A stretch of 64,000 nucleotides of DNA, taken from NCBI GenBank assembly GCA_010405405.1, contig MU004234.1:763818-827817 (forward strand), written 5' to 3'. Position numbers and translations under genes: made by a program. Below the pieces are notes generated by a model, which had not been told where the DNA came from, ran no database searches, and was given only the letters and a program-made list of their open reading frames with translations. Each line of letters begins with the position of its first letter. The stretch's first letter is position 1. Below, in pieces: positions 9,977 to 53,429 of this stretch. Source of the DNA: Microthyrium microscopicum. Lineage: Eukaryota.

Positions 9977-12900
9977 TCATCCCCTGCCATGGATTTTCAA
10001 CTGCTCCTTCATCATCGCCACCAAATCTTTACTCTTGAACGGTTTCGACATGACGGTATCCTAAGAGGTCAAAAAACCTTTATTAGCCTTGGCAAAAATC
10101 TTCTCACACCTCATTCTTCCACAAGTACACCACACACATCACCCTCATAACCGCCAACCTGCAACCTCACCACACCCACACAAACAAGCAAGACAAGTCC
10201 ACAGGAATAAAAGAGAACGCAATCAACATACCGAACCAGCCGCTACCATCTCCTCCCTCTGCTCAACCCTCGCATTTGCTGTGACGGCAATAATTGGCAC
10301 ATGGCGTTTCAAAAGGCCCTTGTTTTGCATACTGCGTATTCGGCGGGTACATTCTAGACCGCCCATTATGGGCATTTGGGCGTCCATTAGGATTATATCT
10401 AGCGGAATTTTTTGCACTTCTGCTACAGTTTCTTCTTGCACTTCTTCTCCTATTATGTCTGTTTTGGGGTGGCTGGTGATGCTCTGTTCGGTGGCGTCAT
10501 TCCCATTCCCTCCAGTCGTATTTGCGTAGCAGGAGAATTTCGGTAGGAGGGATAATGCGTCTGCGCCGTGGTTGGCGGTGTGGACTATGCAGTTTAGGCG
10601 CTGGAGTTGTTTGCGCAGAACGGTCTGGTTTACTAGGTTGTCTTCTACTAGGAGGACGTGTATCGGGACATCATCGTCGATTTCTTGGGCGGCGGGAAGG
10701 CTTTCTGGCGAACGGACTGGCGTGCGGGACATGGGGATTTGGGATTTGATGGGGCCTTTTGAGTGAGGAGATGTATGGAGAGCGGTGGGTGCTCGGCGGA
10801 CGAGAATGTAGAAGATGAAGGTGCTTCCCTGCCCGGGCGCGGAGCGAATGCCGATTTCACCTCCTTGTTTCTCGGTAAGTTGTTTGGATATGAAGAGACC
10901 GAGGCCGGAGCCGCCGTAGAAGACGTGGGTTTTGATGTTGGCTTGTTTGAAACGTTCGAAGATGCGGGATTGTTGGGCTTGGTCGACGCCTATGCCGCTG
11001 TCTTTGACGCTGAATGTGAGATATATCTGTTCGCCGTCGCCCCATTCTTCGCGGAGGGTGGCATCTTCTGCTTTGTCACCCTTTTCGGCCCAGTGAGTGT
11101 CTGTAGGGAAGGATAGGCGTGGGTGGGTTTTGCAGGCGCCATATTGGACTTTGATGTGTCGGTTAACTTCATTTTTGACGAATTTTATGGCGTTCGTAAG
11201 AAGGTTTATGAGGATTTGCGTTATGCGTGATGCGTCTGCTAGGACTTGGTCGATTTCTAGTTGTGCGTATGAGGGGTGCGCGACGAGTTGGAGGGAGATG
11301 TTGCTATATTCCATTTCTTTGGCGAACATGGCGATGATGGATTCGGTGAGACTTTCTAGGAGGACTACGCGTGGTGTTATGGAAAGCATTTCGGATTCCA
11401 TGCGGCCTAGAGTCAAGACGCTGTCGATAATGTAGCGTTGATGTTCAACGCAGGTTTCGATGATACGTGCCGCAGATACATTCTCGGTCAAGGCATCGAC
11501 ATAAGGCTGTGGTATAGAAGTATGATCATGAAGGTCCTCGAATGAAGTGATAATGCTATCCACGCAATGAACTATTGCGGAGAGAGGATTTCTCATTTCA
11601 TGGGATACGATATCGATGAAGGCTTCTTGTTGGCGTTTTGCTTCTTGGGCATCTTTTGCAATTCTTGCTTGCCATGTTTCTGCCCACTTTAAGCGACTAA
11701 CATCAGTGGCACATGCCATGACAGATCGTACAGTATCATTCTCTCGATAAGGGAAAGCAAGAAGTAAGACCGTTGCTGGGACTGAGTCGCCAATAGGTGG
11801 GACGTATGGACGCTTGAGTCTGACTTCAGCTGAAACACGCTCTTCGCCATTTACGACTTGTTGCCAGGCATTTTCTGCAATGGGCAAATCCTCTTCCAAG
11901 ACGAATTGAAAGATACCATAGTCGTGTTGTAGTTCCGTTGGTTCTTGTTCAACCATTGCAAAGTATTGATTGTTCGCCCATATAGTTGTACCATCCACGA
12001 GAAGATGAACCATTGCGACAGAAGCATGTTGTACGAGATGTTGTATTTTGATATCGCTATTTGCAAGATCTCGCTCGAGCCGTTCCTGCCGGCGCCTGGA
12101 TTGTGTGACACTGACTGCCAAAGTCATGACACCGGATACCATTCTACTCAAGTCCTGAAGAAATTGAGTGTTTTGTTCGTCAAGCAACAAGGGATTGGTC
12201 CCAGTGATGAGAAAACCAAGAAGGCGAGTTCCAGAGGAGAGTGGGATGATAGCAACGCTCCTAGATGGTCCTCCTGGGCCTCTCCAAATAATATCATGGA
12301 ACATTTCGTTTACGGTAAATACCATGGGCGTTCCTCTTGATCGTGCTAGTCGGCACAAGGGAATAAGTCCTTTCGAACTGCTCCAGCTTTGACCATCCAC
12401 CAAAAGGGGGTGTTCTTCCGGTACTCCCAATTGACCGCGAAGATGAAAGACGTTTTCCGGTTCATCTTCACCATCCAGCTGATACATAATGGCCATTGTG
12501 ATATCATTCTCATTAGTTTCCAGACAATCCATTACATGTCTACAGACACTTTCAGTAGTAAGGTTTGTTGATGAAGCAATCCGGTTAAGCACTGCAGTTC
12601 TTCTGTCATTGATCTTCTGCTTCGTCACTTCGAAAAGGGCATTGTAAAATCCAACGATCTCGCCTTCACTATCTCGAATGGGAGTGAAATTGCCAGTAAA
12701 AAATGTCTCTTCAGGATATCCATTTCGTTCCACAGTCATAGGCGCCTCTATAACATCCGCTGCTGCACCCGTACTCGTCGCCAATTCAAAGAGTGGACCG
12801 ATTCCTTGCCATATTTCGGGGAAACCTTGCTTAAAGGTAGAGCCCATGAGAGATGGATGGGTTTTGCCGGCTAGAGGTACAAAAGCCTCGTTGTATATCG

Positions 12901-13258
12901 GGACATATTCCGGACCCCTATGACGTGCATGTTAGAGCTTGAGAGCGTGCTAGAGAACCATATCCTACCAATACAGCGTTGCTGGACGCGAATCTGCGAT
13001 AACTTGATAAAATGATTGTCGCAAACCGGGCGGCCAATTTTCTATGGGTCCGACATGTGTTTTTGACCAATCAACTGATTTTATGAAACGGATATGGTCG
13101 GTATCTGGCAGGAATCGTGTCCAGGAATTCTTATCATTTCGAGTCTCTTTGGATGTATGCGTATCTTGAGGCAAATCGGGCGGGGGAGCTTCTGAGCCAG
13201 CCTCGACAGTATCGACGAGGGAAGCTCCAGCTAGAGCCGCATCAATTGAAGAAGTCAT
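9977..13258 (-). CDS. Hybrid sensor histidine kinase (PAS/GAF-like sensors, HisKA, HATPase, receiver)
   Basis: H-box SHEMRNPL, N-box NLLTNAIKF, DSGIG, GGSGLGL, receiver LLVEDN and ILMDAQMP. Exons ~13258-12968, ~12918-10232 and 10060-9977 (last exon DTVMSKPFKSKDLV...), with GT-AG introns. Confidence 0.93.
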
Positions 13259-14583
13259 GGAGCAGCCAAGTGGCAGTTCCCCTAGAAGAAGATAGATGTA
13301 CGATCGTGTCGAGGGTTGTCATGGTGGGGGCGATCGAGGCGACTGGCAAGAGATAAGAACCTGAGCGTTTCCTGTCACTGTACTACTCGAACCATGTCGG
13401 TGTATAAGTGGAACATGTATCGAAGATAGACATGGTCAAGGACTGGATAGAGGCCTTTGCAGGACTCGAAGTGAGAATGTTTGGCATCGGAGTTGGTCCC
13501 GAGGCACGTTCTGGCAGGTTGGCGATTATCGGATACCGGATCCGGCGGAAGGAGACGACGCGTGGTTGCTTCCGAGGTTGGTTAAGAAATGAAGAGCGCG
13601 CTGAAAGCATTTCATCCATCTTCATGTATTTGTGCGTTCTCAACCGCTCTATTATTTTTCTATCTCCTCATAGTAGCTACTGGTGATGATATCTGAGGAT
13701 GCTAAAGCTTATATCTCATGAGGAAGTGTGTTTCGGCCATTCCCGCGCCATCATCGACATCCTGATGCAGCATTACAGTACTCTACACGGGCATATCAAA
13801 GCAATTGATATCGAACCATTTGAAAATCCTTTCCACAAGCACAGTAATTTGGAGGTCTAGGTGTTAGATGTAAGACATATCCGTCATTGCGCATGAACCG
13901 CAAAAGGGAATTCCACAACCCGCCAATTGACATGTTGGCGTGGTTGGCTGCATCCATCCTTCATGCCATACGGTCAAGACTCAAGGTTTATAGACAACTT
14001 ATACAGAGTGGCCTCGAGGTTGTATTGCATATATCCTGGTATTTGAGGCCGCTTCTCAAGCAATGCTACAATCTTTATGCATACCATGTAATTCAGCAGT
14101 ACCAAGGTCGGAACATCAGATTGAGTGGAACGGTCAGTCCATGAACCTGGTATAGATCGTTGCACTAACAAGGCGCCGTAAGCCGGACATCCAAGATATC
14201 GGGATTTCAGCTGGAAATAGCATGCCATTCAGCCAACCAGATGCCCTGATTTCACCCAAGAAAGGCTGAAATCTTCAAGAACTTTCAGCCGTACATTTTG
14301 TGAACGTTAACTGACATGACTGACTCCAAGAAAAAGCAAAAAAAAGCGGTTGGGATTCTCCCCGCCTTCTCTCCCCATCTCTATTCTTCGAAGGATTCTT
14401 AAATCAAGCTCGCGGTCAACCACACCGCCACTGATTACAATCAATTGCCTCTCCTCCACCTTAGTCTGTCTCTATCGACTGCCCATCACTCGGCCTTCTT
14501 CCCTATAACTCCTCAACTCGCCTCCTATCCCTCCAACTCATGCTATCATCACCATATCTCTAATCTTCCAACCTCTCAGCACC

Positions 14584-17513
14584 ATGTCCGCGCCCAGATA
14601 TCCTATCGTCGAGCGTACAATCCGCGGCGAACATCCAATCCATACATCCGTCCTAACCCAACGCGCCCTCCCACCATCAAGCCGACCCCCCTCTCCAGGT
14701 CGAACTCCCCTCCCCTCACGCCCCGCATCACCAACCATACAGCCCACCGGTCCAACCTCAATCACCCAAATCGCACACTCCTCCAGCAAGCGCCCAAAGC
14801 GCCGCGCCCCAAAAAACCAACATGCGCAAGTAGCAATCGACCAATTCTGGGCCCGCTTCACAGCACCCACCCCCGGCAAACCCTTCACCCTCCTCCCCGA
14901 CAACGCCCACGCAGCCCGCGCACACTCCGCAACCCAACTCCCCTCCTCCAAAACCGCTCTCGCATCCTACTCTGAAGCGCGCGCCGCCTGTGCCGCCAAA
15001 GTGCGGAAAATCGTGCGCGAATGTCGACGCTTGAACATCAAATACCGTGACCCGCATTTCGACATTGAAGATGATTTTCGCAAATGGATGGGTAAGGAGA
15101 GGGCGTATAGCGATTGTTTGATGGGTTTGAATGAGATAAGAGAGGATTTGAGACCTGCGAGCGTGAAGAGGGTTGAAGATATTTTTGAGGAGCCGTGTTT
15201 TTTTATCGACGGGGCTACGGCGAATGATGTGAGGCAGGGGAAGGAGGGGGATTGCTGGTTTATGAGTGCGTTGTGTACTTTGAGTAATAAGGAGGGGTTG
15301 ATTCAGAGGGTTTGTGTGGAGAGGGATGAGCAGGTTGGTGTTTATGGGTTTGTTTTTCATCGCGGTTCGTATGAGAGCGATAGCTTGTGGAGGTTGTGAC
15401 TGATCAATTGTGTACAGATGGCGAGTGGATGAGTGAGGTTATTGATGATAAGCTGTATCTTATTAAGGAGGACTTTGATGATTCGACGCTGGAAAGGAAT
15501 CGTTGGCTTGAGTTGCAGAATCGGACTATGCCGGCTGATGAGTGGAAGTCGGTTATGCAGACTGGTTCGAGGGCGTTGTATTTTGCTCAGTGTGAGAATC
15601 AGAATGAGACTTGGTTTGTACAGCTCTTTCGGGGCCAGGAGGATCAATGCTGACTGTGCAAGGCTCCCTCTTCTCGAAAAAGCATACGCAAAAGCTCATG
15701 GCGACTTTTCAGCACTCGAAAGCGGCTTTGTTGGAGAAGGTATCGAGGATTTGACAGGAGGCGTGACAACCGAGCTATTTTCTACCGACATTCTCGATAA
15801 AGACAAATTCTGGCGCGAGGAACTGATGAATGTTAATAAACAATTCCTATTTGGTTGCGGTCAGATGAACGGAGCATACGGATCACGAAGTGGTATCATT
15901 GAGAAACACGCCTATTCTATCATGGAAGCACGAGAAATCAATGGTCAGCGACTAGTCAAGTTACGCAATCCGTGGGGTAGTGGTGGTGAATGGCAGGGTG
16001 CTTGGTCAGATGGTAGCGCAGAATGGACACCGGAATGGATGACACTGTTGGATCATAAATTCGGTGATGATGGTGTAAGTGATGTCAAGATTGACGCAAG
16101 GAGAAATACTGACAATCGACTTAGGTCTTCTGGATTGCATATAAAGATCTACTACGAAACTATCAACATTTCGATCGAACCCGCCTCTTTGGACCCGAAT
16201 GGACAATAACTCAACAATGGACAAGTGTAGAAGTTCCATGGACGGTAGACTATCTCGACACCAAATTCAAAGTCACCATTCCCAAAGCTGGGCCAGTCGT
16301 AATTGTCCTATCCCAACTCGATGACCGCTACTTCCGTGGCCTCGAAGGCAAATACGATTTCCATTTACAGTTCAGGCTACACAAAGATGATGAGGAAGAA
16401 TATATTGTGAGAAGTAATGCAGCTTACTACATGAAACGCTCCATTAGCACAGAACTCGATCTAGAGCCAGGAATCTACTGGGTCCTTCTAAAAATCACAG
16501 CCAAACGCTACCCCGAAGCCGCCACCGTCGAAGACGTGATTGAAAAGACGTGCCAATTTCGACGTGAAAAGTTACTTCAAGTTGGGCTCAGTTATGACAT
16601 GGCCCATGCAAAAGGCAACTTTCTCGAACTTGAGACTGAAAAGGTTCGGCAAGCGAAGCAAGAGCGCAGGAAGCGGAGGATAGAAATGGCAAAGAAAATG
16701 CACGACGCAAGAACAAAAGAACACAAAAAGCGTAAACTGCGCGCCCTCAAGATGGATTTGAAAAAGAGTGAGAAGATGATGAAGAAGATGGTAGCTGAGG
16801 CGGATCGAAGAGCTCAAGAAGAGACGTATGAAGCTGCTGCAAAACTGGAAGAGTTCAAGATACGTGATACCAATGGTGTGGAGGGCGGACCAGTGCGTCA
16901 GCCACGAAGGGATACGCTGAACGGCAATGGACGCCAGGGCAGATCTGAGAGCCCCATGCGTGTGCCAGTCGCAAGGAGAGATACGCTGACCGTTGAACCA
17001 CCACGCACCACCTCCCTGCCAGTCACAGGCCGCCACGCACCAGATATCAGAGTCCAGAGAGCTAGTATAGCCTCCGGCGGCAAACTAACGCTAAGCGATA
17101 TCAGTGATGATGACCTAGATTGGGATTCCGAGCTCGATGCCCCCTCAGATAGCGAAGATGACCAACCAACTCAACCATTCCGCCAATCCTCCGCGCTCTG
17201 CAACAGCTGCGGTAGAGACGACGGCAACGACAATGGTAATGACAACGACGAAGACGAATTCGAAAAAGATCCCTGGAACGCAGTCTGCGTAGTCGGACTC
17301 CGCGTCTACGCCGAAAACCAAGAAGTCGACATTTCCGTCCATCGAGGCGAAGACTTGCACGAGGAAGATGAGCAGAAACGTCTAGATGTTGATGATGCGT
17401 CCAAGGATGCAGTGGAGGCTATGCGGACGCCGATGAACAGTCCGATTACGCCGCAGGTTAGGAACCGTGGCTTCTCCGGGTTGGATGCGCTGCTACGGAT
17501 GGCGGAGACATAA
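14584..17513 (+). CDS. Calpain-like cysteine protease (peptidase C2)
   Basis: Catalytic motifs QGKEGDCWFMSAL (Cys), HAYSI (His), LRNPWG (Asn), plus LLEKAYAKAHG. Exons 14584-15364, 15418-15613, 15663-16074 and 16125-17513 join in frame. Confidence 0.92.
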
Positions 17514-17677
17514 TGAATTGAAGGTTAATGAAATGTAGGATGTCTATCACGACAAAGCATAATATATACATGTATATACACTAATAAGGAGAGATTGGGG
17601 GTATCTTGACGCTAATATCATTTTGTCTAATGGACCTACCATGCTATTCTATCTTATGCTTTGGAGTACATGGTCTC

Positions 17678-17905
17678 TTACATGACATTGCAAGACCAAT
17701 ATGTATGCATGAATTCATTCTCGTTGACGGGAAGAGCCATCTCGGAGTCTGCAGAGCGCATTACTGTGCAGAGTTGCCAGTTGCTGCCCCAATCAGCGTT
17801 CATGTTGACGGGCAGAGCCTCTTCGGTACGCATAACGGTGCAGAGCTGCCAGTTACTGCCCCAATCAGCATTTGAGTTAACGGGGGATGTGGTGTTTGAG
17901 ATCAT
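17678..17905 (-). CDS. Tandem CAAX-repeat peptide precursor (candidate a-class/h-type prenylated pheromone precursor), 75 aa
   Basis: MISNTTSPVNSNADWGSNWQLCTVMRTEEALPVNMNADWGSNWQLCTVMRSADSEMALPVNENEFMHTYWSCNVM*. ATG in a CACAATG context, terminal CAAX (CNVM) and two internal CTVM. The two 15-codon repeats differ at 6 synonymous and 0 non-synonymous positions. Confidence 0.85.
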   Translation of the reverse strand: MISNTTSPVNSNADWGSNWQLCTVMRTEEALPVNMNADWGSNWQLCTVMRSADSEMALPVNENEFMHTYWSCNVM

Positions 17906-18160
17906 TGTGTGGCTTGGTTGTGGTGTGTTTCTTTGTGGGTAGTTTGTGTTTTTCGGTATGGTTGTGGATGTGTTATGGGTGAACGTGTTTGGAATTGCGA
18001 TTGAAGACTTGATGGGCTTAAATACTAGTAGTACAGTGGTAATAGGTTGGAACATAGCGGATTGTTTGGGATAATGGTTCTTTCGGGGAATGAAAGAGGC
18101 TTGGTGGCTGCTTTGATGAACAGTATAAAAGTTTGTTGGTGATGAGCTTTATGTGAGCTT

Positions 18161-18262
18161 CATATTGTTTCCTTGAGTGCTTAGTATTGTCTCCATGGCA
18201 GAGCGAGGTTTGGTTAGTATTGTCTCCCTAGAAAGACGAGGCTGCTTAGTATTGTTGACCTG
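18161..18262 (-). promoter_or_regulatory. Array of ACAATA(CTAA) motifs upstream of the CAAX precursor (putative HMG-box sites)
   Basis: Plus strand ttagtattgt at 18181, 18214 and 18246 (32-33 bp spacing) plus tattgt at 18163. A TATA-like TATTTAA lies on the minus strand at ~18019-18025. Confidence 0.5.
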
Positions 18263-19080
18263 GTAAGTCAGGTCGCTTTGTGTGTTGTGACATTGAAAGT
18301 AGAATGGAATTGTAAGTGTTTCCAGCCGCGAGAGATCAAAAGCTTTCTACTTGGATACTCGGTTCCTGACCATGTGGATCGCAAGCATAAGTCTTGCTCT
18401 GAATAAAGCTTAACTCCTTTCTTGCATAAAGCTGTTAATCTGGAACCTTAACGGATTTGGCAGGTTCTCGTAGAGGCGTGATTCCAAATCATTTTCTAAC
18501 GTTACCGATGTAACTTTATAAAGCGATATCAAATCTAGTCATGGCCCCTCAGGGGTGGTTATACCTTATGTTCGTTGGTTCTTTGGTTTGTGGAATCCTC
18601 ATACTCTAGCGGACGAATTTACTTGACAGACCTTTTGACTTTACTTGTTGGTGATCTTGTCTTCCACAATGTTTTGGAATGAGATGCTACTTTACTATCT
18701 ATCCGTACTAGGGACAACTGAATTGATGAGCAAGATACTTACGTGGCGGGTGAAAACAGATAAATATCTTGCAGTGTGTGCACAAAGAAAAATTGAATTT
18801 TAATGTTGCCCGAAACGAGTTGTATTTATGGAGCTAGACCTGAAGGTCGGCACAGTGGAGGAATTGGTGCCTGGAAAGATTAGGAATAGGCCTAAAGAGG
18901 CCCTGGCTATGGGCATCTCGGTTCGCTGAAATTGTACTGCGTGTCATGTTGTGATATATAACCGTAAGCGCTAGTTCTCCGTCCTTGCCGACAACCTCTC
19001 ATCGCCCAAAGCTCATCAAGACAAGAAAACACCACATCAAATCTCTGAAAGCAACCATTAACTGTATCGATCTCGTCAGA

Positions 19081-19976
19081 ATGAACGCCTCAACAGCCTA
19101 CACCCCCAAGCAGGCCCTTGCTCTGGATACACCAGAAGGTTACGACAAGTCCGGAGGTGCTATAACCGCAGAGTATGCAAAACACTGCATCTCTCGTTGT
19201 CTGCCGTTCGGAGCTGATTCGATAATTTTGGACAATGCGTGCGGTACAGGAGCGGTATGCTTTTCCTCGTAACTATCAGTTATCATATAGTGTCAAACTA
19301 AGAGTCTCAGATCACAGACGCCATCATAGCCTCCGAACCACCAAGCAGTATCCAACTTAACCTCGCCGACAAATCTCCAGCTTACACTGCCTTCTGCCAA
19401 GCCAAATACGCCAACATCCAATTGTCAATCGGAACATACACAATGCCCTCAGAAGCACTGCGAATTGCCTACGGCTCATTAACCCATTCTTTCAATAACT
19501 TTGGCATCTTCATGACTACCAATAGTGGACGCGACGGTGCCTCGGAAATCTACCGCACTCTCGAGCCGGGTGGCATCGCGGTCACGACCTGTTGGGAAAG
19601 TCTCACTTGGCTTGGACCCGCCAAAGCGGTGCATGAGCGCACTAGACCTGGTGCGCCGTGGCCGAATCCAGTGGTTAGTTGGAGCGACGGAAACCATTTG
19701 GTGGGGATTTTGAAGGAGGCTGGATTTAGCAATGTGGAGTTAAGGACTGAGGAGGTTTGGGCGAAGACGAGAGATTTGAGATCTTGGGCGGAGCAATCTT
19801 GGGCGATTCTTGGTGGACCACCGACAGGTGGGTGGAAGGAGGGAGATGAAGAGAAATGGGATGAAGCTGTGGACATATTTGTAGAGGAATTGAGGAAGGC
19901 GGATGGGTTTAAGGAGATGGATGATGGGGAAATTAGGATGAGGTGCTCGGCACATATTGTGACTGCAGTCAGATAA
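19081..19976 (+). CDS. Class I SAM-dependent methyltransferase
   Basis: Motif I ILDNACGTGA, HSFNNFGIF, EIYRTLEPGG. Exons 19081-19254 and 19311-19976. Confidence 0.88.
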
Positions 19977-32775: not shown

Positions 32776-33774
32776 ATGCCTTATCCACCAGTAGATAATG
32801 GTACGTCTATTGTTCTATATCGAGACAACGTACAGCTTGCTATGAAATTATACTGACGATCTGAAGGGAGAACATTCATCAAAACCACCCACAAAGACAC
32901 CTACCCATTCATCAACCCAGCCAAATCAGACCATACCGGCCACTATGTCCTCATCACCGGTGGATCCAAAGGAATCGGTCTCGCAACAGCAATATCCTTC
33001 GCGCAAGCAGGAGCAGCCGGCATAGCAATTACAGGCCGCTCTGACCTCACCGACGCAGGAAAGCAAATCTTCGTCGCAGCCGCAAAGGCAGGAAAACCTT
33101 CGCCTAAAATAGTGGCTCTACCCATGGACGTTCTAGATCTCGAATCCGTCAACAACGCTATGGCCGATCTGGAAAAAGTATTTCCCAAACTCGACATTTT
33201 GATCAACAATGCTGGGTATCTCAGTCCGTTCGATCCTATTATGCAGTCCGAGCCCGCAGATTGGTGGAAGAATTGGGAAGTTAATGTTCGAGGCGTGTAC
33301 TGGGTCACGAAGGCGATATTACCATTCCTATTGAACGGCGGCGAGAAGACGATTGTGAACGTTTCTAGTGCTGGTGCTCATGGAGTTCGCCATGGCGGAA
33401 GTGGCTATCAGACGACCAAGTTTGCGCTGTTGAGATTCACAGAGTATTTGATGGTTGAGCATTTTGATGATGGATTACTGGCTTATTCGGTGCATCCTTG
33501 TGGGAATGTTACAAAATTAGGGTCAAGTATGCCGAAGGATTTACATCACCGTAAGTGAAAATTGAATTCTGGAAAGGATGTGGTGCTGACGATGTGTCTA
33601 GTTCTGACGGATACATTGGAGATTGCCAGTGATACGATGTGTTTTCTGACACAAACGAGGCGCGAGTGGTTAGCTGGTAGGTACGTGAGTTGTACCTGGG
33701 ATATGGAGGAATTCTTGAGCAGGGAGCAGGAGATTGTTGAGGGCGACAAGCTGAAGATGAGGATGACTTTTTAA
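32776..33774 (+). CDS. Short-chain dehydrogenase/reductase
   Basis: TGGSKGIG, ILINNAG, VNVSS, YQTTK, HPCG. Introns ~32800-32866 and 33551-33602. Confidence 0.9.
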
Positions 33775-33956
33775 AAATGATGAAGATGTATAGAAATATG
33801 TTCAGTCTAGCTTTTGATGCAATATAAAATCTCAACTCCGATACCATGATACCGATCCTTCCTTCCCAAAGACATAGGAAATGTAACACAGACATAAGAA
33901 TGACAAAAGAATAGCTCCAAACCCAACCAGAAACCAACCAGAAACCAAAGCATTTT

Positions 33957-34084
33957 GATGAGATACAAGACTGATGAGATAAAAGACCGACGAGGTACAA
34001 GACTGATGAAATACAGGACTGATGAGATACAAGACTGACGAGGTACAAGATTGATGAGATGAAAGACCGATGAGATAAGAAAAT
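33957..34084. repeat. 16-bp minisatellite (GATGAGATACAAGACT) x ~8
   Basis: Eight adjacent variant copies between the convergent SDR and PKS 3' ends. Confidence 0.85.
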
Positions 34085-34245
34085 GAAATAGAAGAAAATC
34101 ATGATGTCAATTTAGATGACTGCAAAAGTTAGCGTCGTTCAATTGTGCTTTGATGGTAAGACTTACACATTCGTCCATCGGCTATGCTTGTGGACAAGTA
34201 TTAGAAATGTAGTCATATAAAGCACACATTCTGTTTATCGTCCAT

Positions 34246-37200
34246 TTAAGCAACAACTCCGATAATCTTTCCGACATCGCGAGCAGCGTGCTGGATGTGA
34301 GTAGCATAGTCTTTGCAGCCGCCATTAGCGCCAACAATGAGAAACTGCAGTCTAGAAAGCTATTAGTGTATGGTCAATAAAGAGCAGCAGGATCAACATA
34401 CTTATCAGGACGAATCATGTTTCCAATACCCATACCATCTTCAACAACTTGCCAGAAACCATAAGAATGGCTATGCTTAGATGGCAAGAAAGAAGCGCTG
34501 AGATACCATTGTTGGGACTTCTGGTGCAATGGGTCCTTGAAGAGCTCTGGAGCCTCTTCACCATCGCGTATCATCTCTTTGAGAGCGAGTAAGTGAGCTT
34601 CAGTGTTCTCGGTACCATCTGCAGCAGTCGTGACGTTCTTGCCATGAGCAATGAGAGCGGCATCAAAGGCAGCCTTGCGAGCTGCTTGGTCGGCAGTGGG
34701 ATCATCAGCAAGCTGGCAGAACTTGAGAACTTCTTCAATGACCATGGAACAACTGGTCCAGCGACCATCGTTGAAGGAGGTAAGAGCGACAGGTTCGTAG
34801 TTGGGTTTCAATTCGCCGTACATGCGGTAAGCAGCAAGGTTGAGAACGACTTGGACGAAGGTGTTGGAATTAGTCTTCTTGGAGGAGAGAGCGATATCTC
34901 CGAAACCTTCGCAGGAGATAGATACCATGTCTTCGGTGCTGATGGTCTTGTCGAATTGAGCGCGAGCCTTGGTGACGATCTCCGAGAGTTCTGTGGTAGC
35001 AGGGAATTGGAGGCTGTCGACTTGCAGACGATAGGCTTCAAGGCCAGCAGTGTTGCGAATTGGTTGGTTCTTGGCCTTCCGGATAAACTCTTGCACGTAG
35101 TCGTTCAGTCTCAAACTTGGTCCCCCATCAGAGGCGGAATGTTCTCCAATATATCCAGTGTGGCCGTTGTCGTTGACTGTAAATTGGACTGGCTTGTCAA
35201 AGAATCGATTGAGACCTTTGCCGTACCAGACTTGAGCAGCTTCTTCCTCGAGAGTCTTGGGTGTCTCGTTGTCAAGGCAGAGGATAAAGCATGAACTCTG
35301 GACATCCTCGAGTGATTGACCCGCTTCGGGAGAAGACTCCATGAGCTTGATTCGAGCGTCTGCCCAGTCATCTCTATTCATGGTAGTAAAGGCACCAACT
35401 TCGAGTGTAGATCCAAGATCTTTCTCGATGATAGCTTCGAGTGCAGCCTTCAACTGACTCTGATCAAGCCGTTGTCCTTTATACTCATAGTTCAACTTGA
35501 AAAAATGACCACCTCGTATCACAGTAATGTGGCGATGAGATGCGGCGTCGAATCTTACCAAGTAATCCTTGGGCTTTCCAGGGATACGACAAGCGTTGAA
35601 CATGTTCTTGTACTGCTGCATATCGGCTTGGGCATCTCTGAGCAAGTCTCGTTCCATGGTACCATTCTCGACTTCTTCTTGGAAATTGAGAACGGCGGCG
35701 CAGATGTATGATGCTGCTTCGCTCATGGTCTGGATGGTGCTTGGCTCGTGAACACCAAAGTAGTTGGTGAATGGTGCAATTGGAGCACGGTTGTCAAAGT
35801 ATTGTCGGTCCATCCATAGATCAGAGTGCCAATTCTTGGTGGTATTGGTGTAGTCCATAAGGCGAGCTTGGAGTTTGTGGCCGACTCCTGTTGGAGCGAT
35901 AAAATTCTCAACACAGGCTTTGGAGCGGAGGTATTCCTCATCGCTAGAGATTAAACGCAGTGATTTGAGTAGTGCAGATGTAGTCACGTCGAGTGTTGGA
36001 ACTGGTAGGCTTGGCAAATCGGACTTGATGTTCGTCGAGTTCAGAGAAACAGTGGTTGGAGTGGAATCCGAGATAACAGAGCCAGTATCAGAGTCTGTGG
36101 ATGATGCTTCTTCAGCCTTTGCGCCTGGTCCATCTTGGAACTCAGCTTCTGCTAGCCATCTGGATCTCTGAGCTGCAAGTTCACCAAGAGCAGCAATCGT
36201 TTTGGATCCGAGGATTTCGAAAGTTCCCAAGTTGCAACCAAGCTCTTGCCTCATCCAGTTTCTGATCTCAATGGCAATGAGTGAATCGATACCATAGTCA
36301 GAGACAGATGCTTCCAGTTTGAGACTCGACAATTGAATGGCCATCAAGGATGCAATCTTCTCAAGAAGCTTTTGACCGATGAAAGTAGTCGCTTCATTGT
36401 AAGACTTGCAGCTTTGAATAACCTGTTGAGCACTTCGAGTTTGAGTGGGACCAGCAGCGGTAACACCAGCCGAGACTGACTGGCGGACTCTCAAGAATGA
36501 GAATCTACCAACTCGAGTGAGGCGTTCCTTCATGGTATGGGAGAGTCCAATCATAAGCTGACTTTGAGAAGCGTTCTCTGGCTTTCGTTTGATGGCGTAT
36601 GAGAGAGCGCGGAAGAAAGTGTCCATGCTGACTGGTTGCATGCCTTGACTTGCAACGTAGTCGCTTGCAAACTTGTTCTCTTCGACATATCCAGCACCCT
36701 TCATCCATCCAAGATCCAAAGATGTGACAGGTTGACCCATACTGGTGAGGTAGCGGGCATACGAGTCTTGGAATGTGGAAGCAGCCACGTAGTTACCTTG
36801 AGTGGGGCCACCGATAATTCCCACAACTGAAGAAAGGATGATGAAGAAATCGAGAGTGCATGGAGGTAGATACTTGACCAAGTTTTGAGTTCCTTGGACC
36901 TTGGGAACAACCACTTCATGGAATTGATCCTTGGTCATGGTTTCGAATGGGCAATCCTTCAAAATGTCAGCTCTATCAAAATCAACTCATGCGCAGCACT
37001 TACTCTTAGAACCATGGCACCTTGCACAACACCACGAATTGGTGGCAAGGTCTTCCTACACTCTTCAATGGCTTCGCGGACTTGGTCCTCGTTACCAACA
37101 TCGCAAGTCATGATAGTCAGAATTGCACCATGCTTCAGCAACTCAGCAGTAAGAGATTGTGCTGCCTTGGAGGGTGTCTTTGATCTGGAGAATGCAACTA

Positions 37201-40200
37201 GATTGACCGTATCGTCATGGGTCGCCATCCAGCGGCAGATTTCTCTTCCAAGACCACCTAGACCACCAGAGATGAGATAGGTTGCTGAGCCACGAATTGG
37301 CTTCTCAGCAAAGTCTGGAATAGTGACCTGAAATGAAGCGTTAGTGATGAGTGACGCGGGGGGCTTTCTTTCACTTACCTTGAGATCAGCTTGGGTTGAC
37401 AAGTCCAGAACCATTTTTCCGATATGCTTGCCAGTACTCATGTAACGGAAAGCATCAGGACAGTCACCAAAGTTGCGAACGTGGAGTGGACCGGCCCACT
37501 TGAGGCTTCCATCTTGAAGCATGTCAATAACCTTCTGAAGCATAGTACCAATTGTCTCTGGCTCAAGTTCATAAACACGAGACAAATCCAAAGCGATAAA
37601 GCTGGTGGATTTGTTGAAGATTGCCATGTTGAGTTTACTGCCGCTCAAGATATCGTTCTTGCCAATCTCAATGAATCGGCCGAATGTTCCAAGACAGCGA
37701 CAGCTTTCGGTAATGAACTCTCCACTCAAAGAATTGAGAATGATATCAATACCCTTGCCATTGGTGATGTTCATGATTCCGTCCACGAAACGGTAGTTTT
37801 TGCTGGAGAAGATGTTCTCTTCTGGAATGCCGAATTTGTCGACCAAGAACTGTTTCTTCTCGTCATTACCACAAGTGGCAAAGACATTGGCGCCAAAGTG
37901 TTGAGCAATAGTGATGGCAGATTGACCAACTGCACCAGTTCCAGAATGAATCAGGACATTGTCTCCTTTACGGATATGTGCCAGGTTGACAAGAGAGTAC
38001 CAGGAGGTGAGATATGTCAGAGGGAATTGTGCAGCCTCAACAAAACTCATAGAATCTGGAATTCTTCTGGTGCTGATTGCAGGTATTCTAACGGCAGTGG
38101 TGAATGCATTGAAGATACCACTGCTGACAACTCGGTCTCCAACCTGGAATTGGTCTTTGACATTATCGCCTACAGCTGTGACAACACCACTGCACTCGCC
38201 TGCAGGTCTTTCGGCGTATTCAGCAGCACTGAATTTTCCAAGAGCATATAGAACATGTCTGAAGTTGACACCAGCGGCCTTGACCTCGACTTGGATCTGA
38301 TCTGGGTTGAGAGGTCCTTTGATCAAATCATCGGGAACGAATCGAAGACTTTCAAGGAAGCCTAGAGTTCTGAAATCCAGCTTCACAGCGGCAACAGATG
38401 ACTCGGCGATTGGTCCCGTCTCTTCAACATCTCCAGTGTTGAGATATTTGGTGAAGGTTGTCTCAGGTATGACACGTGGAACTTGAACGGTGTTCTCTCG
38501 GATAGCGAATTCAGTCTCGTTCGACTCGCCTAAGAATGACTTGGCGAGGATAGAGGAGAGCGGGCTGACATCCAGTTGTGATTCGATATCGACTGTAATG
38601 AACTTCATCGAGTCGGTCTCGGATCGGATGTTGCGAGACAGGCCGGTAAGAACCGCTTGAGTTGGTACTCCACTGTCTCCGATAGCTCCAGAAGTGAGAA
38701 CAACAGCGCCAGAAGATGCAGAGATCATCTTTTGGAATTGCTTGAAACGATCTTCATTACCAGCAATGAGCAGCGAAGAGGTCGAGGCGCCAACAAAGAT
38801 GCAAACTTGATCTGGCGAAAGCTCAGTCGCCCAGTCAATAATCTCGCAGGGCGATGAAAGATTTTCTCTAACAGCGCGCTGTAGCTCTTGAGGCTTGATC
38901 AAATTGTACTCGACATCCGGAACAATCACAAACGATGTCGTGGAGGCAGGTAGGGGCTCATGCGGCATGGTGGCCACGATGACTGACATACTGCTGTCAA
39001 TCTCGCTCGCAGCATCCGGAACGCAAATGGAGGAACCGAAGCCAACATTGCCCAGAGTCTTGATCCAGCTCTCTCCTGACAAGCATGGACCTTCTGTACG
39101 CTTCACTGTGTAGTCCTCACTGCCGAGCCACCAACCAGCAAGACATCCGAAAACGAGATGCAGATATCTTGTTGGACGAGTGACCTCCAGCAGCAACAAC
39201 TGACCGCCTGGTCTCAGAAGCTTGCCAGTGTTTGAAAGAGTCGTCTCTATGTATTTTGTGGCGTGAAGAACGTTGGAAGCAATGATCAAGTCATAGTCGC
39301 CAGCTTCAAAACCTTGTTCCACAGGATCTGACTCAATATCAAGCTTCTTGTAGATGATGGAGTCGTTCCATTTGGAAAGAACCTCGCGAGCCTGGATGAA
39401 GAAACCAGCAGAAATGTCTGTGAATGTGTATGAGAATCCGTGATCAGCTGGCATGCTGTTGAGAATGGCCATGGTTGTACCACCAGTACCAGCACCAATT
39501 TCCAGAATCTTCATAGTTGGCTTCTTCTTGGCAAGCAAGTTGACATATGCTGCCATTTGCTCGTAATAGTGGTCGATCCAGTCACCGGCATAGTACTTGT
39601 AGAGTAAGTTGTCCTCCAACATGAGAGACAAAGGATCAACTTCGCCGCGGAGAATGCCAGGTAGAGCAATACCCATCCGTCGGAGCATAGTAGCTTCAGT
39701 AGAGGTTTCTTGCAATTTCGAGAGATCGAAAGCCTCTGCTGGTTCAGGCGTGGAAGCGAGCACTGATCGCATATAATCATGCAGGTGGCGAAGATAGTCC
39801 ACCTTGACTTCTTCGAGAGGAACCTGAGATACAGCTTCTCTGTAGAAATGCAGTGCTGCTTGAACATAGAGTGGGTTCGTTGGGCAAGGGATCGAGTTTG
39901 GCGTGGACTTTAGACAAAAGTCTTGGATTTGCTTGGTGTCAAACATGGAAGGATCTTGAATCCATTCCATTCGGTAACAGCCATGATCTTCAGACGATTC
40001 GATTGCGAGTTCGCCTTCAAGCACAACGGCCGCAAAGTTGTCAATGCGAATAGCTAGCCCATCAGATTTGGTGACTGTTGCATAAGCGTTCAAGTTCGTC
40101 TTTCCAAGGAATCGGGATGTAGCGTGAACATGGAGCAATTCAGCATCAGTGGTTGTACCACATGAGATGGTCAAAGAATCCATCGAAGTTGGGACCATGG

Positions 40201-43200
40201 CAGTAGAAGCATTGCGATTGTAAACATTTGGTGCCACCATTGCCTGGAAGATTCCATCGAGGGTAGCTGGATGCACAATGTAGCTGTTATGGTTGTGGGT
40301 ACCATTCTCGTCGACCATTTGCTTGACGTGACCATCGAATACGGTATCATCAATGAATCCATCTACGATAGTCCTGAAGTTGGGTCCGTAGTTGAGGCCG
40401 ACTTGTTGGAACTTTTGGTATGCTTCTTTGCGGTCTAGCGGCCGGGCAGAAGCGTCTGTCAAACCGGTTTGTGGAAGCTCTCCTTGGTCCGCCTGTGGGA
40501 TTGCAACAATAGTACCGCGGCAGTGTTTGTGCCAAGTAGTGGCATCAGAGCTAGAAACAACTCGGAATTCGTATCTCGTGTCAGAGGCTTCGCGCAATTG
40601 TTCAAGGACTGGGCGAAGGTAGCAAACTATCTCAACTTCCATTGAAGGGTCATCGAGTAGAAGACCTCTTTCGAAAACAATGTCTCGGAGTTCGAGGAAC
40701 TTGGGTTGCTCTGGTCGGAAGTTCTTCTCGCTGTAATTTTGATAGAATGCTTGCATGGCAATGCAAAGATATCCGGCACCTGGAAAGATGATGTTATCGT
40801 TCACGCGATGGTCACTCAACCAATCGAGCGCGGAGATCTTCAGGATGTTTCGCCATTGTGGTTCCAGTGATGTTGATTGCGGTACCCGAGATCCAAGAAG
40901 TTCGTGATATGGGAAAGCACGTCGGAGATGACGAGTCGTTACAGCAGATTCGTGCCAGTATCTGTTAGAATGATCCCAGCAATACTGAGGTAGATCCGTG
41001 AGAAGATGAGTAGTTTGTTCGTCGACAAGAGGGTATGTGGTGCATTCAACGTCAACAGAAACACCCGACTCCAGCATCTTTTGTGCAGCTTGTAGTGCAG
41101 TCTCAGCGGCGTTAAAGTTGCGTTTGAGCATAGATGCATAGGGAACCGCACGTTCTGGGCCAAGTGTCTGTTTGATGGGGCCTTCAAAAACAGAATGAGG
41201 GCTGACTTCGATGAGCATTCCCAAGTTGGTGGTTTGTTGGCTCATGGCTCCAAGTCCCTGGCAGAATTTAACCTGTGAGACAAGGTTCTCGATCCAATAC
41301 TGCGGCTGTAGTTCTGAGGCCGAGATGCGTTCGGCTCGAACAGAAGACCAAAACTCTACATGACTGGGAGTTTCCGATGGAATGCAATGGGCAATGGAGC
41401 TCAGATAGGCATCGGCAATGAGTTGCATGTCGCTGCTGTGGTAAGCAACGTCCACCTTTAGAGCCCTTGCGAAGACTCCGCGCTGCTCCAGAATGTCCTT
41501 GTACTGCAGTATAGCCTGGCGGGCACCTGAGACTGTAACGCTCGACGGACTGTTCACGCAAGCTACTACAAGCTTGCTGCCGATATCTGTTGGTAAGCTG
41601 GCGATTTCTGCTTCTGCTTCAGTCACTGACAGCCCAGCGGCCATCATAGAACCGTCTGGGGCATTTTCGAGTTGACGCATTCGTGACGTATGAAGACCGC
41701 GGAAGTATGCTATTGTCAAGGCGTGTTCGAGGCTCAAAGCTCCAGTAGCATAAGCCGCTGCGATTTCACCACTCGAGTGTCCGATCACACAGTCGGGTTC
41801 TACTTTCCAAGATTTCAGGAGCTCAACTAAAGCGACCTGTAGTGCTGTGGAAAGAGGTTGCCCAATAGCAGCGTCGTCAACTCGTGAAGTGTCCTTATCG
41901 CGAGATAGTTCCTCTAGAATAAGATCGTTAGTTCATGCTAGAAGCGATACAGGCAATGACTTACCAAGTAATGACCATTCAGCACCTAAACTTTTATAGA
42001 TTCCATCAGCTGCCTCCATGGTGCGCTGGAAACTGGGGTAAGAGCCCAAAAGTTCTCGACCCATGGCAAACCATTGAGCGCCTTGGCCAGCGAAGACGAA
42101 GCCAGTTTTCGATGCGGTTGAGGCTAGTTTGGGAGCAGCATCTTCCATCTTTGCTACAAGGTCTTTCATGCTAGACGCAGTGACTGACCAGCGCCATGGG
42201 AAGCCCTCGTATCTTTTCGAAAGAGTGTACGCTAGAGAGTCGAAATTCTCCTCCGGTTGATCTTGGCAATGGGCTTTCAACGCCTGTATTCTCTTTTTGC
42301 ATGAAATTTCAGTCATTGCAGAGAGGACAAAGAGCCGATGTTGAGTATTTGACCCCGTCAAACCAGATTTTGCCTCGATCACATCTTGTCGAACATGAGA
42401 TGGTGCTTGTTGTCCGAGGGTCTGGAGAAATGATGGGAAACTCTCAATAACGACATGACTGTTTGAACCTCCAACACCGAGATTGTTGATGGAGATACGC
42501 TGAGGCAAGCCGGCTTGCCATTTTTCGTCCGTTATGGGAATCTGGCGCACGTTAGCTTGTGAACTGGCTCTGAGATTGTTTGAAAAATTGTACCTTGACG
42601 TTCCATCGCTCCAGCTGGGCTTTGGGATTGGGTTTCTCGAAATTGAGAGATGCAGGTATTACACCCTTCTCTAGTATCAAGATGGACTTGATCAGTGACG
42701 CCAAACCACTCACAGGTTCTAGATGACCGATGTTCGTCTTGACTGAGCCAACGATGGTTTTGGTGCTTCTCTCTGTAGCGTCACCAAAGATCGTACCAAT
42801 TGCTTCAATTTCGAGAGGATCGCCGGCAGCAGTTCCTGTTCCATGAGCTTCGACATATAGCGTCTCCTTTGGATCAAGACCACAGCTCTGATAAGCCGCT
42901 AGAGCAACTTCTACCTGAGCTGGTGCACTTGGGATTGTGATTGTGGAAGTACGTCCATTCTGATTTGTTGCAGTACCGCGAACAAGAGCCCGAATTGGAT
43001 CTCCGTCTCGGAGGGCAGCAGCTAGAGGTTTAAGTACCACACAAGCGGCACCTTCACCTCGTCCGTAGCCACCAGCTCGACAGTCGAAAGCGAATGATCT
43101 GCCCTCTTTGGAGAAGAATCTTGGGCCATAGTTAGCAAATAGCAAAAGATTGAGTTTCGATATACATACTGCAGTCTGTTCATGCCGTTAACTGCGTCCG

Positions 43201-43939
43201 GTTCTAGCATGAGAGTGCAACCAGAGACAAGTGCCTGGTCAGCTTCGCCAGTTTTCAGACTTTGGCAAGCCAAGTGGAGTGCATTTGAACTTCCTGAGCA
43301 TGCGGTATCCAAAGTCATACTGGGGCCTTTGAAGTCGAAGAAATAAGCAATACGATTTGCAGCGACGACCTGGTTACCAGTGCTATGGTAATGAGCCATG
43401 TTATCGGCATCTCGGAACTGCATGATTTCGTAGTCATGATTGAATGTGCTGGTGTATACTGCAGTCTTGCTTCCTCTTAGTTTCCGTAGAGGTATTGAAG
43501 CTAGAGCAGGATTAGTTTTCATTCAATTCCCGACATCTGTTCCACTTGCCAGATTCGAAAGCTTCATAAGCACACTCTAATTGGATTCTCTGCTGAGGAT
43601 CGATTGCTGTTGCTTCGCTTTCTGTAATGTTAAAGAAAGAGGGATCAAACTTTCCAACATCTCCTTGAAGAAAGTATGCTCCTTTGAAGCTGACCTGAAG
43701 GTTTGAAATCAGTAACTCGCTATTTGGAATTTGTGTTGTGATAAACTCACCGATCCACCAGTTCCAATAGTTGGTTGATAGAAGGATTTGGCATTGAATC
43801 TCTCCTCTGGTATTTCTGTCCAGGTATCTCTCTTTTCGATCATATGCTTCCAGAATTCCTCTGGACTGTTGGCATCACCTGGAAAACGACAGTTCATTGC
43901 CACCACCGCAATCGGCATGTCATTATGTTGAGAGGCCAT
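34246..43939 (-). CDS. Highly reducing iterative type I PKS, KS-AT-DH-cMT-ER-KR-ACP, with C-terminal carnitine O-acyltransferase-like domain
   Basis: [44 protein letters not shown] and [59 protein letters not shown]; c[25 protein letters not shown]. Multiple short GT-AG introns; last exon ends ...GVVA* at 34246. Confidence 0.95.
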
Positions 43940-45714: not shown

Positions 45715-47309
45715 ATGGCTCGGGCGAAAAAGCCATCAACGGATGCCGGAAAGAGGGAGAAGGCTCTTTCATGGCGGAGTTCGAAATGGTTTATACAACT
45801 TGCAGTAGGAATGGCTGTATTCACAGACATCTTCCTATATGCACTTATTGTGCCTGTTATGCCCTTTGCTTTGCAGTCAAGAACAGACTTGAAGGAAGAT
45901 GAAAGTCAGTATTGTGCATGTACAAACTGACCCTGCATCACCTCTAACATATGATTCTAGTCGATTCCTGGGTTTCCATACTCATCGCAGTATACGGTGG
46001 AGCTCTTGCTGTCGCATCTCGTAAGTCCTTGCCAATGTAGCTACCGTCAAGCAACTTCTAATCTTCAATAGCTATCTGTGGATGGGCCGCCGACCACTCA
46101 ACAAACCGACGGATACCACTACTAGCTGGCCTAATTGCTCTAGCTGGAGCTACAGTATTACTTCAAGTAGGACCCAATATCGGCATTCTAGTCCTCGGCC
46201 GCATCTTGCAAGGCGTCTCGGCAGCCGTGGTATGGGTCGTCGGACTCGCGCTTCTCGTGGATACCGTACCACGTGCTGAAGTGGGCCAGGCCATGGGCTA
46301 TGTCTTCCTTGCAATGAGTCTAGGTGTCCTAGTAGGACCGCTCTTTGGAGGTTTTATTTTTGAAAAGGCTGGATATGATGCTGTTTATGCAATGGCCTAT
46401 GGGTTCATTGGAGTTGATATTGTTATGCGAATACTGATGTTGGAACCAAAGCCTCAAGAGATACTGGACAATAAGAAGTTGCAAACTCGGAGTCGATCTG
46501 CATCCGAATCATCGGTTGATCTTGAAATGAAGACAGGCACAGAGAAAATAGAACACGCAACAACAGAAGTTACTATCGACCCCAAAGAAGCCGAAGAGTT
46601 TCCATCACGAGGCAAGCCGTCCAAGAAAGTGCCCGCCATTTTTATCCTGCTTCGATCTCGTCGCCTACTATCATGTCTCTGGGGTGTCATGATCACAGCC
46701 ATTCTCGGCTCACAATTCGACTCCGTCTTACCAATTCATGTAAGAGATACTTTCAACTGGGGCTCGACGGCCGCAGGACTCATTTTCCTCCCTATTACAC
46801 TTACCGCCTTCCTCTCACCAGCCGTAGGATTGGGCGTCGACAAATACGGTCCTCGCTGGTTCGCCACGGCTGGATTCGTTACTCTTGCTCCATTCGAAAT
46901 TCTTCTTAGCCTGGTCATTCGCAATACGATAGGCCAAAAAGTCCTACTTTGTTTTCTCCTCGCCATGATCGGAATCAGTTTCGATCTGACGATAACACCA
47001 CTTCTCGTAGAGATCACTGCCGTTGTCGAAGCCAAAGAAACTGCGTCTCCAGGCATTTTCGGAAAGAAGGGTGCCATGGCTCAAGCATACGGCTTGTTCA
47101 ACTTTGCATGGGCGTGTGGCTCACTCGTTGGGCCAATCTGGGCTGGCTTCCTAAACGAAAGATCTGGATGGAAGGCCATGACTTGGAGTCTGGCGCTGTT
47201 GAGTATTGTTTCGGCGATCCCAGTGGCGATATGGATAGGAGGTTCATGGTTTGATCCTGATAAGAGGAGAAGGATACGAAAGCCACATGGCGAGGAGGCG
47301 GATGCTTGA
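45715..47309 (+). CDS. MFS transporter (vesicular amine transporter-like), divergent from the PKS
   Basis: AVFTDIFLYALIVPVMPF, GRILQGVSAAVVWVVGLALLVDTV, AQAYGLFN, many hydrophobic helices. Exons ~45715-45904, 45961-46021 and 46072-47309. Confidence 0.9.
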
Positions 47310-52743: not shown

Positions 52744-53429
52744 CGTCGAGGATATAATGAGATCGTTGGATTTTCCGCAGTCCAGGTACAGTGATGGAGT
52801 CAAGCCGTTCGCATTGTCTTGGTCGGCGGCTTCGCCTTATTATAGTGGTGAGAAGAGTTTCAACCCTTCCTTGATCTGCCAGTGGCGGATCGCTGTAGCC
52901 TAAGAGTCGCTTGAACCTTCCGCATTAGGCAATTGCGACGGCATTTCCATGGCTGTTCGCGAGTCTCGCGCGAGTCACAGCCTCCACAAAGTGGATCGAA
53001 GAATATCCTGCTTATCAAGAACCCTCTCCTAGAAATCCTTTTGATTTTTTCAATTCAAAAACGAAGTCCGCCAATATCTAAGCAGACTCCATGGTAGAGA
53101 ACCGCGACTTCGCGAGTATGACAATTTCTCGCGATGGACAATTTTAACAAGATAAAAGAAAAGGAGGGTCTCATTCCTACAGAGCTATAGATTGCTGATC
53201 AAACTGTTTTCCAAGTAGTCTTGGAATACAGTGTTAAATAGGTTGTGAATTTATGTTTCACTAGGGTTGTCAACTTGTCAATACTAACAAGGTAAGCGAA
53301 CTACTCTCGCCTCGGAAGGATTTGCTTATGAGTCAACGTCTGTTCAACCACCACGACTACAACTACCCCTTAAAGTTGCACGCCTAGTTTTCATCAAGAC
53401 AATATACCAAAAGCTTCTGGAGCTTAACT

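Follow-up and report, generated by a model that had tools for sequence, protein, structure and literature searches.

A candidate three-unit CAAX pheromone precursor with two unlike cores in Microthyrium microscopicum

Introduction

Does a 75-amino-acid (aa) open reading frame (ORF) of Microthyrium microscopicum, made up of three units that each end in a CAAX motif, encode a precursor of farnesylated mating pheromones, and would such a precursor release one kind of peptide or two? The ORF lies on the minus strand of contig MU004234.1 (assembly GCA_010405405.1), within the 64,000-nucleotide (nt) stretch that was analysed and is called the window here; all coordinates are positions in this window. 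Judged by its sequence features, this small intronless gene is probably a real a-factor-class precursor with three pheromone units. The kind of gene is known; its lineage, the pro-segment that belongs to each unit, and the pairing of two unlike cores within a single precursor are new.

Ste3-type receptors are reported to be conserved, and the Ste3 of Colletotrichum to sense host signals, and the ligand is missing for whole fungal classes, which include many plant pathogens. According to PMC10569646, a-factor was unknown in filamentous ascomycetes outside the Sordariomycetes before a putative Leotiomycete gene was described in 2023. For the Dothideomycetes, no a-factor report was found in the literature searched, which omits most subscription journals and is not searchable by peptide. 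A candidate with defined peptides makes the ligand question testable.

Results

Three units share one design

Translation from ATG 17905 bore out the initial annotation's account of a 75-aa ORF with three units, each composed of PVN-x-N, a core, and C-x-V-M (Table 1). The sequence MISNTTS stands ahead of unit 1, and the spacers TEEAL and SADSEMAL precede units 2 and 3, respectively. Asn directly precedes every core, the cores being 10, 10, and 9 residues long, and a single Arg follows each internal CTVM. Because the precursor contains no Lys and only these two isolated Arg, there is no dibasic site, as had been stated before. The N-terminus (MISNTTSPVNSN) is polar as judged by eye only, four of the six residues at positions 2 to 7 are Ser or Thr, and the GY motif is absent from the precursor. 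In unit 3, the residue after the cleavage Asn is Glu, unlike the aromatic or uncharged residue of the cited yeast pattern.

Table 1. Features of the precursor locus (window positions)
Feature	Positions	Strand	Remarks
Candidate multi-unit CAAX precursor, 75 aa plus stop	17678..17905	minus	ATG 17905; stop TAA 17678-17680
Unit 1, PVNSN-ADWGSNWQLC-TVM-R, aa 8-26	17828..17884	minus	core 17840-17869; CTVM 17831-17842
Unit 2, PVNMN-ADWGSNWQLC-TVM-R, aa 32-50	17756..17812	minus	core 17768-17797
Unit 3, PVNEN-EFMHTYWSC-NVM, aa 59-75	17681..17731	minus	core 17690-17716; CNVM abuts stop
In-frame upstream stretch, 50-aa extension or CA-rich 5' leader	17906..18055	minus	from ATG 18055
Antisense rival ORF, 90 aa	17670..17942	plus	third codon positions in register with the precursor's; judged non-coding
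Contig of run X5, 615 nt	17494..18108	not shown	no differences, no splice joint
ATCAAAG, HMG-box core	18111..18117	minus	single, chance-level occurrence
Three tandem 32-33-nt repeats, each with (G/A)ACAATACTAA(G/C)	18178..18273	minus	upstream of the precursor ORF

At the DNA level, units 1 and 2 form a direct repeat (72-nt spacing; 80% identity over 65 nt), and a 28-nt match links the PVN region of unit 2 to that of unit 3. Units 1 and 2 differ at 10 nt in 57 nt: seven differences are synonymous and at third positions, and the other three fall in one codon (tca/atg), the only one that is replaced. The six synonymous differences listed by the initial annotation are all present in the 45-nt N-ADWGSNWQLCTVM-R segment, where there are no others, and a seventh (gtt/gtc, in the Val of PVN) can be added to them.

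All three tetrapeptides (CTVM, CTVM, and CNVM) fit the CpaX type described for the a-pheromones of ascomycetes, in which the polar residue is usually Asn, Ser, or Thr (PMC13037118). In a published table of predictions from yeast-enzyme models, CTVM was positive in all four prenylation predictors and both cleavage predictors, and CNVM in three of the four and again in both. The CNVM of unit 3 is followed by the TAA stop, giving a terminal CAAX, and the product of ATG 17905, at 75 aa, lies within the length of under 100 aa expected of a-factor precursors. A sieve for yeast a-factor looks for Asn 5 to 20 residues before Cys and uses multiple gene copies as a filter (10.1101/2021.09.28.462209). 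The precursor passes through it, with Asn 9 to 10 residues before each Cys and a mature region present in more than one genomic copy. Multiple copies of the mature region are described as typical of a-factors (PMC10182648; 10.1101/2021.09.28.462209).

In a six-frame scan of 967 kb, comprising the 64-kb window and 80 metagenome loci gathered for another purpose (as carriers of BFR2 relatives), 187 ORFs had a CAAX-like tetrapeptide at the C-terminus. At least two CAAX-like motifs occurred in 10 of them, and repeated 5-mers were found in the precursor ORF only (12, with none in the other nine).

Codon usage favours the minus frame

The initial annotation read the synonymous pattern as selection on the minus frame. 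Constraint on the segment is real: in none of 50,000 simulated trials, each placing six random substitutions in 45 nt, was the minus-frame peptide kept. However, the pattern does not single out that frame. The plus-strand ORF at 17670-17942 has its third codon positions in register with those of the precursor, its peptide was kept in 20 of the same 50,000 trials, and across the 57-nt unit each frame has one replaced residue. Since the six core differences are silent in both frames, they therefore show constraint on one of the two, not specifically on the minus frame, and codon usage is needed to tell them apart.

Scored with a table of 6,079 codons from Pfam-supported ORFs of the window, the minus frame had a mean log codon frequency of -3.983 and the plus frame one of -4.206, the value for coding windows being -3.992 +/- 0.08 (n=74). 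The minus frame is thus ahead by 0.22 log units per codon, and in control windows the true frame outscored that antisense phase in 73 of 74. The G content of the 75-codon ORF (23.1%) was close to the coding mean (23.6%). As to layout, the plus ORF begins 157 nt past the stop of a calpain-family gene, and on the 5' side of the precursor about 1.2 kb of intergenic DNA separates it from a divergent gene at 19081. Neither ORF had a Pfam match, the plus ORF showed no recognisable architecture, and no Rfam match was obtained in 17000-19200. The spacer of the paralogue described below was useless for telling the frames apart, its hand reading being conservative in both. Owing to codon usage, base composition, and gene layout, the minus frame is preferred and is very likely the one translated.

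Upstream of ATG 17905, the minus frame stays open to 18148, with ATG 18055 the only ATG between 18148 and 17905. Initiation there would give a 125-aa form that begins with a short hydrophobic stretch, and it is this form that is present in the protein collection searched. The 150 nt between the two ATGs contain 6.7% G, below the 13.3% minimum of 118 coding windows of 150 nt. A contig of run X6 (an unrelated air metagenome), with a depth of 2 that is too low for trust, matches 17872-18034 with two substitutions and a one-base deletion at 17995, all of these differences being upstream of ATG 17905. Because of the low G content of 17906-18055 and the deletion at 17995, ATG 17905 is the favoured start, and 17906-18055 is more likely a leader. 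By its sequence match, the X6 contig indicates that the fungus or a close relative was present in that air sample.

The precursor stretch is covered by an X5 contig

The 615-nt contig that covers the ORF comes from run X5, which was labelled RNA by guess alone. Other X5 contigs bridge six short introns (GT..AG or CT..AC) in neighbouring genes, and some end in adapter; the 615-nt contig overlaps the contig of the calpain gene by 30 nt. The precursor stretch is very probably present in RNA, unspliced. Depth figures are per contig and cannot rank parts of one gene, and an apparent fall in depth upstream of 18108, together with two coverless bins, was not used as evidence for where a transcript starts or against a background of DNA. 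Summed X5 contig depth was also recorded over the supposedly intergenic stretch 18213-19014, where its source may be paralogue contigs, a leader belonging to the 19081 gene, or some other transcript.

A second locus repeats unit 3 and shares an upstream element

Two more copies of unit 3 were found on another contig of the same genome in the DNA run X1 (record 2), a run that may be the source of this assembly. One copy covers 17681-17731 with no differences and the other 17678-17731 with five, and the two are parted by 21 letters and hence in frame. Translated by hand, this spacer reads as a basic residue, Ser, two Glu, Ile, Ala, and Leu, which resembles the precursor spacers Arg-TEEAL and Arg-SADSEMAL. 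On this hand translation, the genome carries at least one further predicted multi-unit gene in which an internal CNVM is followed by a basic residue.

Three tandem repeats lie upstream of the precursor ORF, and a fourth ACAATA occurs at 18163. Two further contigs also carry part of this array, the 45 nt at 18211-18255. The first is the paralogue contig, where a copy of 18214-18255 is located 347 nt further upstream of the unit copies; the second, X1 record 3, shares the upstream element only. Contigs of X5 carry the same flanks of the 18211-18255 element (loose ends). The element may be a promoter module, a part of the transcribed leader, or a small dispersed repeat.

The core of the tandem repeats resembles HMG-box sites, without the final G of A(A/T)CAA(A/T)G. 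The sequence ATCAAAG, present once upstream of the precursor, is the core reported for both Podospora pheromone genes (PMC3730723). ATCAAAG occurs at chance frequency, with 19 occurrences in the 64-kb window and one in the 1.175 kb upstream. The motif A(A/T)CAA(A/T)G was not enriched, with one occurrence in the 1.175 kb upstream and 0.81 per kb across the window, and the MAT1-1-1 motif (T/C)(T/C)ATTGA(G/T/C) was absent from the 1.175 kb upstream. Across the window, the 12-mer of the tandem repeats was not over-represented either (seven matches with at most two mismatches, vs 5.3 expected). Control by mating-type factors is put forward here only as a hypothesis.

Homologue searches returned the locus itself

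A word-indexed protein search with the 75-aa form, covering lengths of 41-132 aa, returned only the window's own 125-aa ORF, and one with the 125-aa form, covering lengths of 68-219 aa and yielding seven candidates, returned only itself. HMMER against 1.84 billion representatives gave the ORF itself and two spurious matches. Both of the latter, a 3739-aa tandem-repeat protein that is probably bacterial and a 408-aa repeat sequence, were rejected as sums of weak repeat matches. Scanning metagenomes with the ORF gave 158 matching pattern stretches, none of which was confirmed, and the best score in the ESM Atlas was 0.76, below the useful level. None of the 80 metagenome loci with BFR2 relatives (36-52% identity), which are distant and in many cases short, has a multi-CAAX ORF. 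Because the unit is short and the collections are not fungal genome sets, these blanks say little about species restriction, and they do not show that the gene is confined to one species. For the neighbouring BFR2 protein, the best named matches had at most 48% identity (120 matches listed). The named matches among these 120 we take to be all from Dothideomycetes except Xylona.

Neighbouring genes

The calpain-family (Peptidase_C2) gene at 14455-17523 on the plus strand has three short introns and a long Lys/Glu/Asp-rich tail. It converges with the precursor, its end lying 165 nt from the precursor stop. Calpain-family proteases are cytosolic by family, and nothing links this gene to precursor processing. 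Between the two converging stops, at 17550-17580, is a near-palindromic TATATACATGTATATA stretch, which might, as a guess from yeast 3'-end elements, mark the 3' ends of both genes. The minus-strand gene at 10223-12931 encodes a hybrid histidine kinase (GAF, PAS, HisKA, HATPase, and receiver domains). This gene, the polyketide synthase described next, and other typical genes place the window in a filamentous ascomycete.

Farther away, the 32857-43874 locus encodes a highly reducing polyketide synthase (PKS) on the minus strand in several ORF pieces, with KS, AT, DH, methyltransferase, ER, KR, and ACP domains and a choline/carnitine acyltransferase domain at the C-terminus. A short-chain dehydrogenase (32857-33558) adjoins the PKS, and MFS transporters are encoded at 46062-47309 and 51346-52836.

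Discussion

A predicted route to two lipopeptides

The original proposal of a multi-copy a-class precursor is partly supported. The CpaX motifs, the Asn spacing, the recurring mature region, and the cover by X5 fit it; the argument from synonymous changes does not single out the minus frame, and the design is less rare than had been stated. All steps of the route set out here are inferred from the sequence and from the yeast pathway. The precursor would be translated in the cytosol from ATG 17905, without a signal peptide. The terminal CNVM would be farnesylated, lose NVM, and be carboxymethylated, and a protease of the Axl1/Ste23 type, cutting after the Asn conserved in PVN-x-N, would free an EFMHTYWSC lipopeptide. 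A cut at or beside the Arg that follows each internal CTVM would allow the same C-terminal chemistry and yield two copies of an ADWGSNWQLC lipopeptide. The lipopeptides would leave the cell by a Ste6-type ABC transporter and act on a Ste3-type receptor, and the paralogue would supply further EFMHTYWSC-type units. The internal units are thought to be released and not discarded mainly because the CTVM-Arg units are conserved despite six silent changes.

Several points weigh against a multi-unit pheromone precursor. We know of no enzyme established for exposing internal CAAX motifs. The 64-kb window contains no STE3 or MAT gene, and the precursor is without the GY motif described for the a-factors of Sordariomycetes and Leotiomycetes. 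The collections searched, none of which is a fungal genome set, yielded no homologue and hence no cross-species conservation of the Cys or CAAX. The X5 contig comes from a run labelled RNA by guess and gives no strand, ends, or level for a transcript. In a transcript that begins upstream of 18055, the first AUG would yield 125 aa, over the limit of under 100 aa for a-factors. Finally, the six core differences are equally synonymous in the plus ORF 17670-17942.

The locus could also be read as a real a-factor-class gene from which only EFMHTYWSC is prenylated and released, the two ADWGSNWQLCTVM-R units being a long pro-region. Farnesyltransferase requires a C-terminal CAAX, no protease that exposes an internal one is established, and the paralogue repeats the terminal-type unit and not the ADW-type; mutants in the Kex2 sites of Trichoderma HPP1 still mate (PMC3068285). 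Yet six synonymous and no replacement differences in the 15 codons of the internal units, including CTVM and Arg, would be hard to explain for a discarded pro-region. In yeast, the identity of the removed N-terminal a-factor sequence is described as immaterial (10.1101/2021.09.28.462209). According to the hand translation, a basic residue also follows the internal CNVM of the paralogue. We therefore regard release of the terminal peptide alone as rather unlikely. A non-mating role of a prenylated peptide or protein, in autocrine or quorum signalling, in hyphal adhesion, or as a membrane-anchored micro-protein, we consider unlikely. The putative Leotiomycete a-factor is reported to show no mating-type-dependent expression, and the same source cites Fusarium oxysporum for autocrine signalling and other uses of the pheromone pathway outside mating (PMC10569646); X5 covers the locus without a known mating condition. 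Against such a role, the ORF is built like a released pheromone and not like an anchored protein, with repeated short cores that each lie between an Asn site and a CAAX, and a-factors typically have their mature region in several gene copies.

It is quite improbable that the minus ORF is untranslated, and that the constraint falls instead on the plus ORF 17670-17942, on a repeat in a long 3' untranslated region of the calpain gene, or on a non-coding RNA. The silence of the six core differences in the plus frame, the 30-nt overlap of the unstranded X5 contig with the calpain-gene contig, and the lack of a homologue backing either frame all speak for it. It is countered by codon usage, in which the minus frame leads by 0.22 log units per codon in a comparison that the true frame wins in 73 of 74 controls, and by the position of the plus ORF 157 nt after the calpain stop, which leaves no room for a promoter; that ORF has neither a Pfam match nor a recognisable design. 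Three in-register C-x-V-M motifs in antisense, the last of them at the stop, would moreover have to be chance, and there is no Rfam match. The repeated short cores in one precursor, with a highly reducing PKS cluster 16 kb away, could also suggest another fungal ribosomally synthesized and post-translationally modified peptide (RiPP), its Trp-rich cores modified by non-CAAX enzymes. Other fungal RiPP precursors are known to have a signal peptide and dibasic sites flanking the repeated cores. The present ORF has neither (the signal peptide being judged by eye), the genes around it have housekeeping roles (calpain, a NUBPL-type ATPase, BFR2, and a pfkB kinase), and the invariant feature of its units is the CAAX itself, which makes a RiPP of that kind highly improbable.

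The three-unit pheromone precursor is the reading we prefer. An extended version of it, which we hold as possible but doubtful, is that the locus represents the first a-factor-class family in a Dothideomycete-type fungus, with a mode of action new to ascomycetes in which cuts of one cytosolic precursor at CAAX-Arg/Lys and PVN-x-N would give two different farnesylated peptides, a possible two-signal code for one or more Ste3-type receptors, with copies co-regulated by the shared element. For related genomes, the unit offers a search template: PVN-x-N, a core of 9-10 residues, and CpaX, repeated. The design also bears on how a multi-unit precursor comes to have its internal CAAX motifs exposed in the cytosol.

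Comparison with known a-factor systems

The proposed route takes the Saccharomyces cerevisiae a-factor genes MFA1 and MFA2 as its template, in which each precursor yields a single mature peptide and exposure of an internal CAAX does not arise. Their products are described as being farnesylated, trimmed of AAX, and methylated, then cut at the N-terminus, with the final cut after Asn, and exported by Ste6 (PMC2134810; 10.1101/2021.09.28.462209).

Multi-CAAX precursors, which the initial annotation had called uncommon, are established in Sordariomycetes, where besides Trichoderma HPP1 they are found in Fusarium, Verticillium, Huntiella, and other Ceratocystidaceae. In Huntiella, up to seven a-factor genes are reported, each with up to five 12-aa repeats that start with Arg and end in CpaX, and the authors liken these repeats to Fusarium a-factor and to the h-type precursors of Verticillium and Trichoderma (PMC10182648). 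Every predicted mature peptide of the Ceratocystidaceae is described as having its own CaaX or CpaX (PMC13037118). The precursor resembles those of Huntiella, the Ceratocystidaceae, and the Fusarium fujikuroi complex in the Arg straight after each internal CpaX and in the several gene copies per genome. In the Huntiella/Fusarium type, near-identical 12-aa units abut and the N-terminus is hydrophobic; by contrast, each unit of the precursor has its own pro-segment of 9-13 aa (acidic residues, A-L, and PVN-x-N), its third core is unrelated to the first two, and its N-terminus in the 75-aa form is polar. The Huntiella/Fusarium type also belongs to another fungal class, and no sequence similarity was detected.

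HPP1 of Trichoderma reesei contains three copies of (L/I)GC(T/S)VM, one of them C-terminal, and two Kex2 sites, and is reported to be required for male fertility (PMC3068285). Its authors consider up to three prenylated peptides conceivable, by analogy with rhodotorucine A; mating was not abolished by mutation of the Kex2 sites, and processing is given as open (PMC3068285). The precursor likewise has three C-x-V-M motifs, one of them terminal. It departs from the HPP1 consensus in having QL, QL, and WS before the Cys and CNVM as its terminal motif, and from the dibasic Kex2 sites in having no Lys and two isolated Arg.

The putative Leotiomycete a-factor (BCIN_13g03330 in Botrytis cinerea) is described as a protein of 45-64 aa with a single CAAX, most commonly CTVM, and GY near the C-terminus, for which co-opted functions are discussed (PMC10569646). 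Compared by description, the two have in common that they are small unannotated ORFs from outside the Sordariomycetes with a Ser/Thr-rich N-terminus, and the commonest Leotiomycete ending, CTVM, is the internal motif of the precursor; the precursor differs in its three CAAX motifs and the absence of GY.

In the rhodotorucine A precursors of Rhodosporidium toruloides, a single basic residue closes each internal spacer. These precursors belong to the Basidiomycota, consist of identical repeats with no pro-segment per unit, and have no sequence relation to the one described here. They are reported to contain tandem pheromones with CAAX-like spacers and to release several farnesylated peptides (described in PMC3068285), and it is in this arrangement, tandem pheromone sequences split by CAAX-like spacers, and in the single basic residue that the M. 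microscopicum precursor resembles them.

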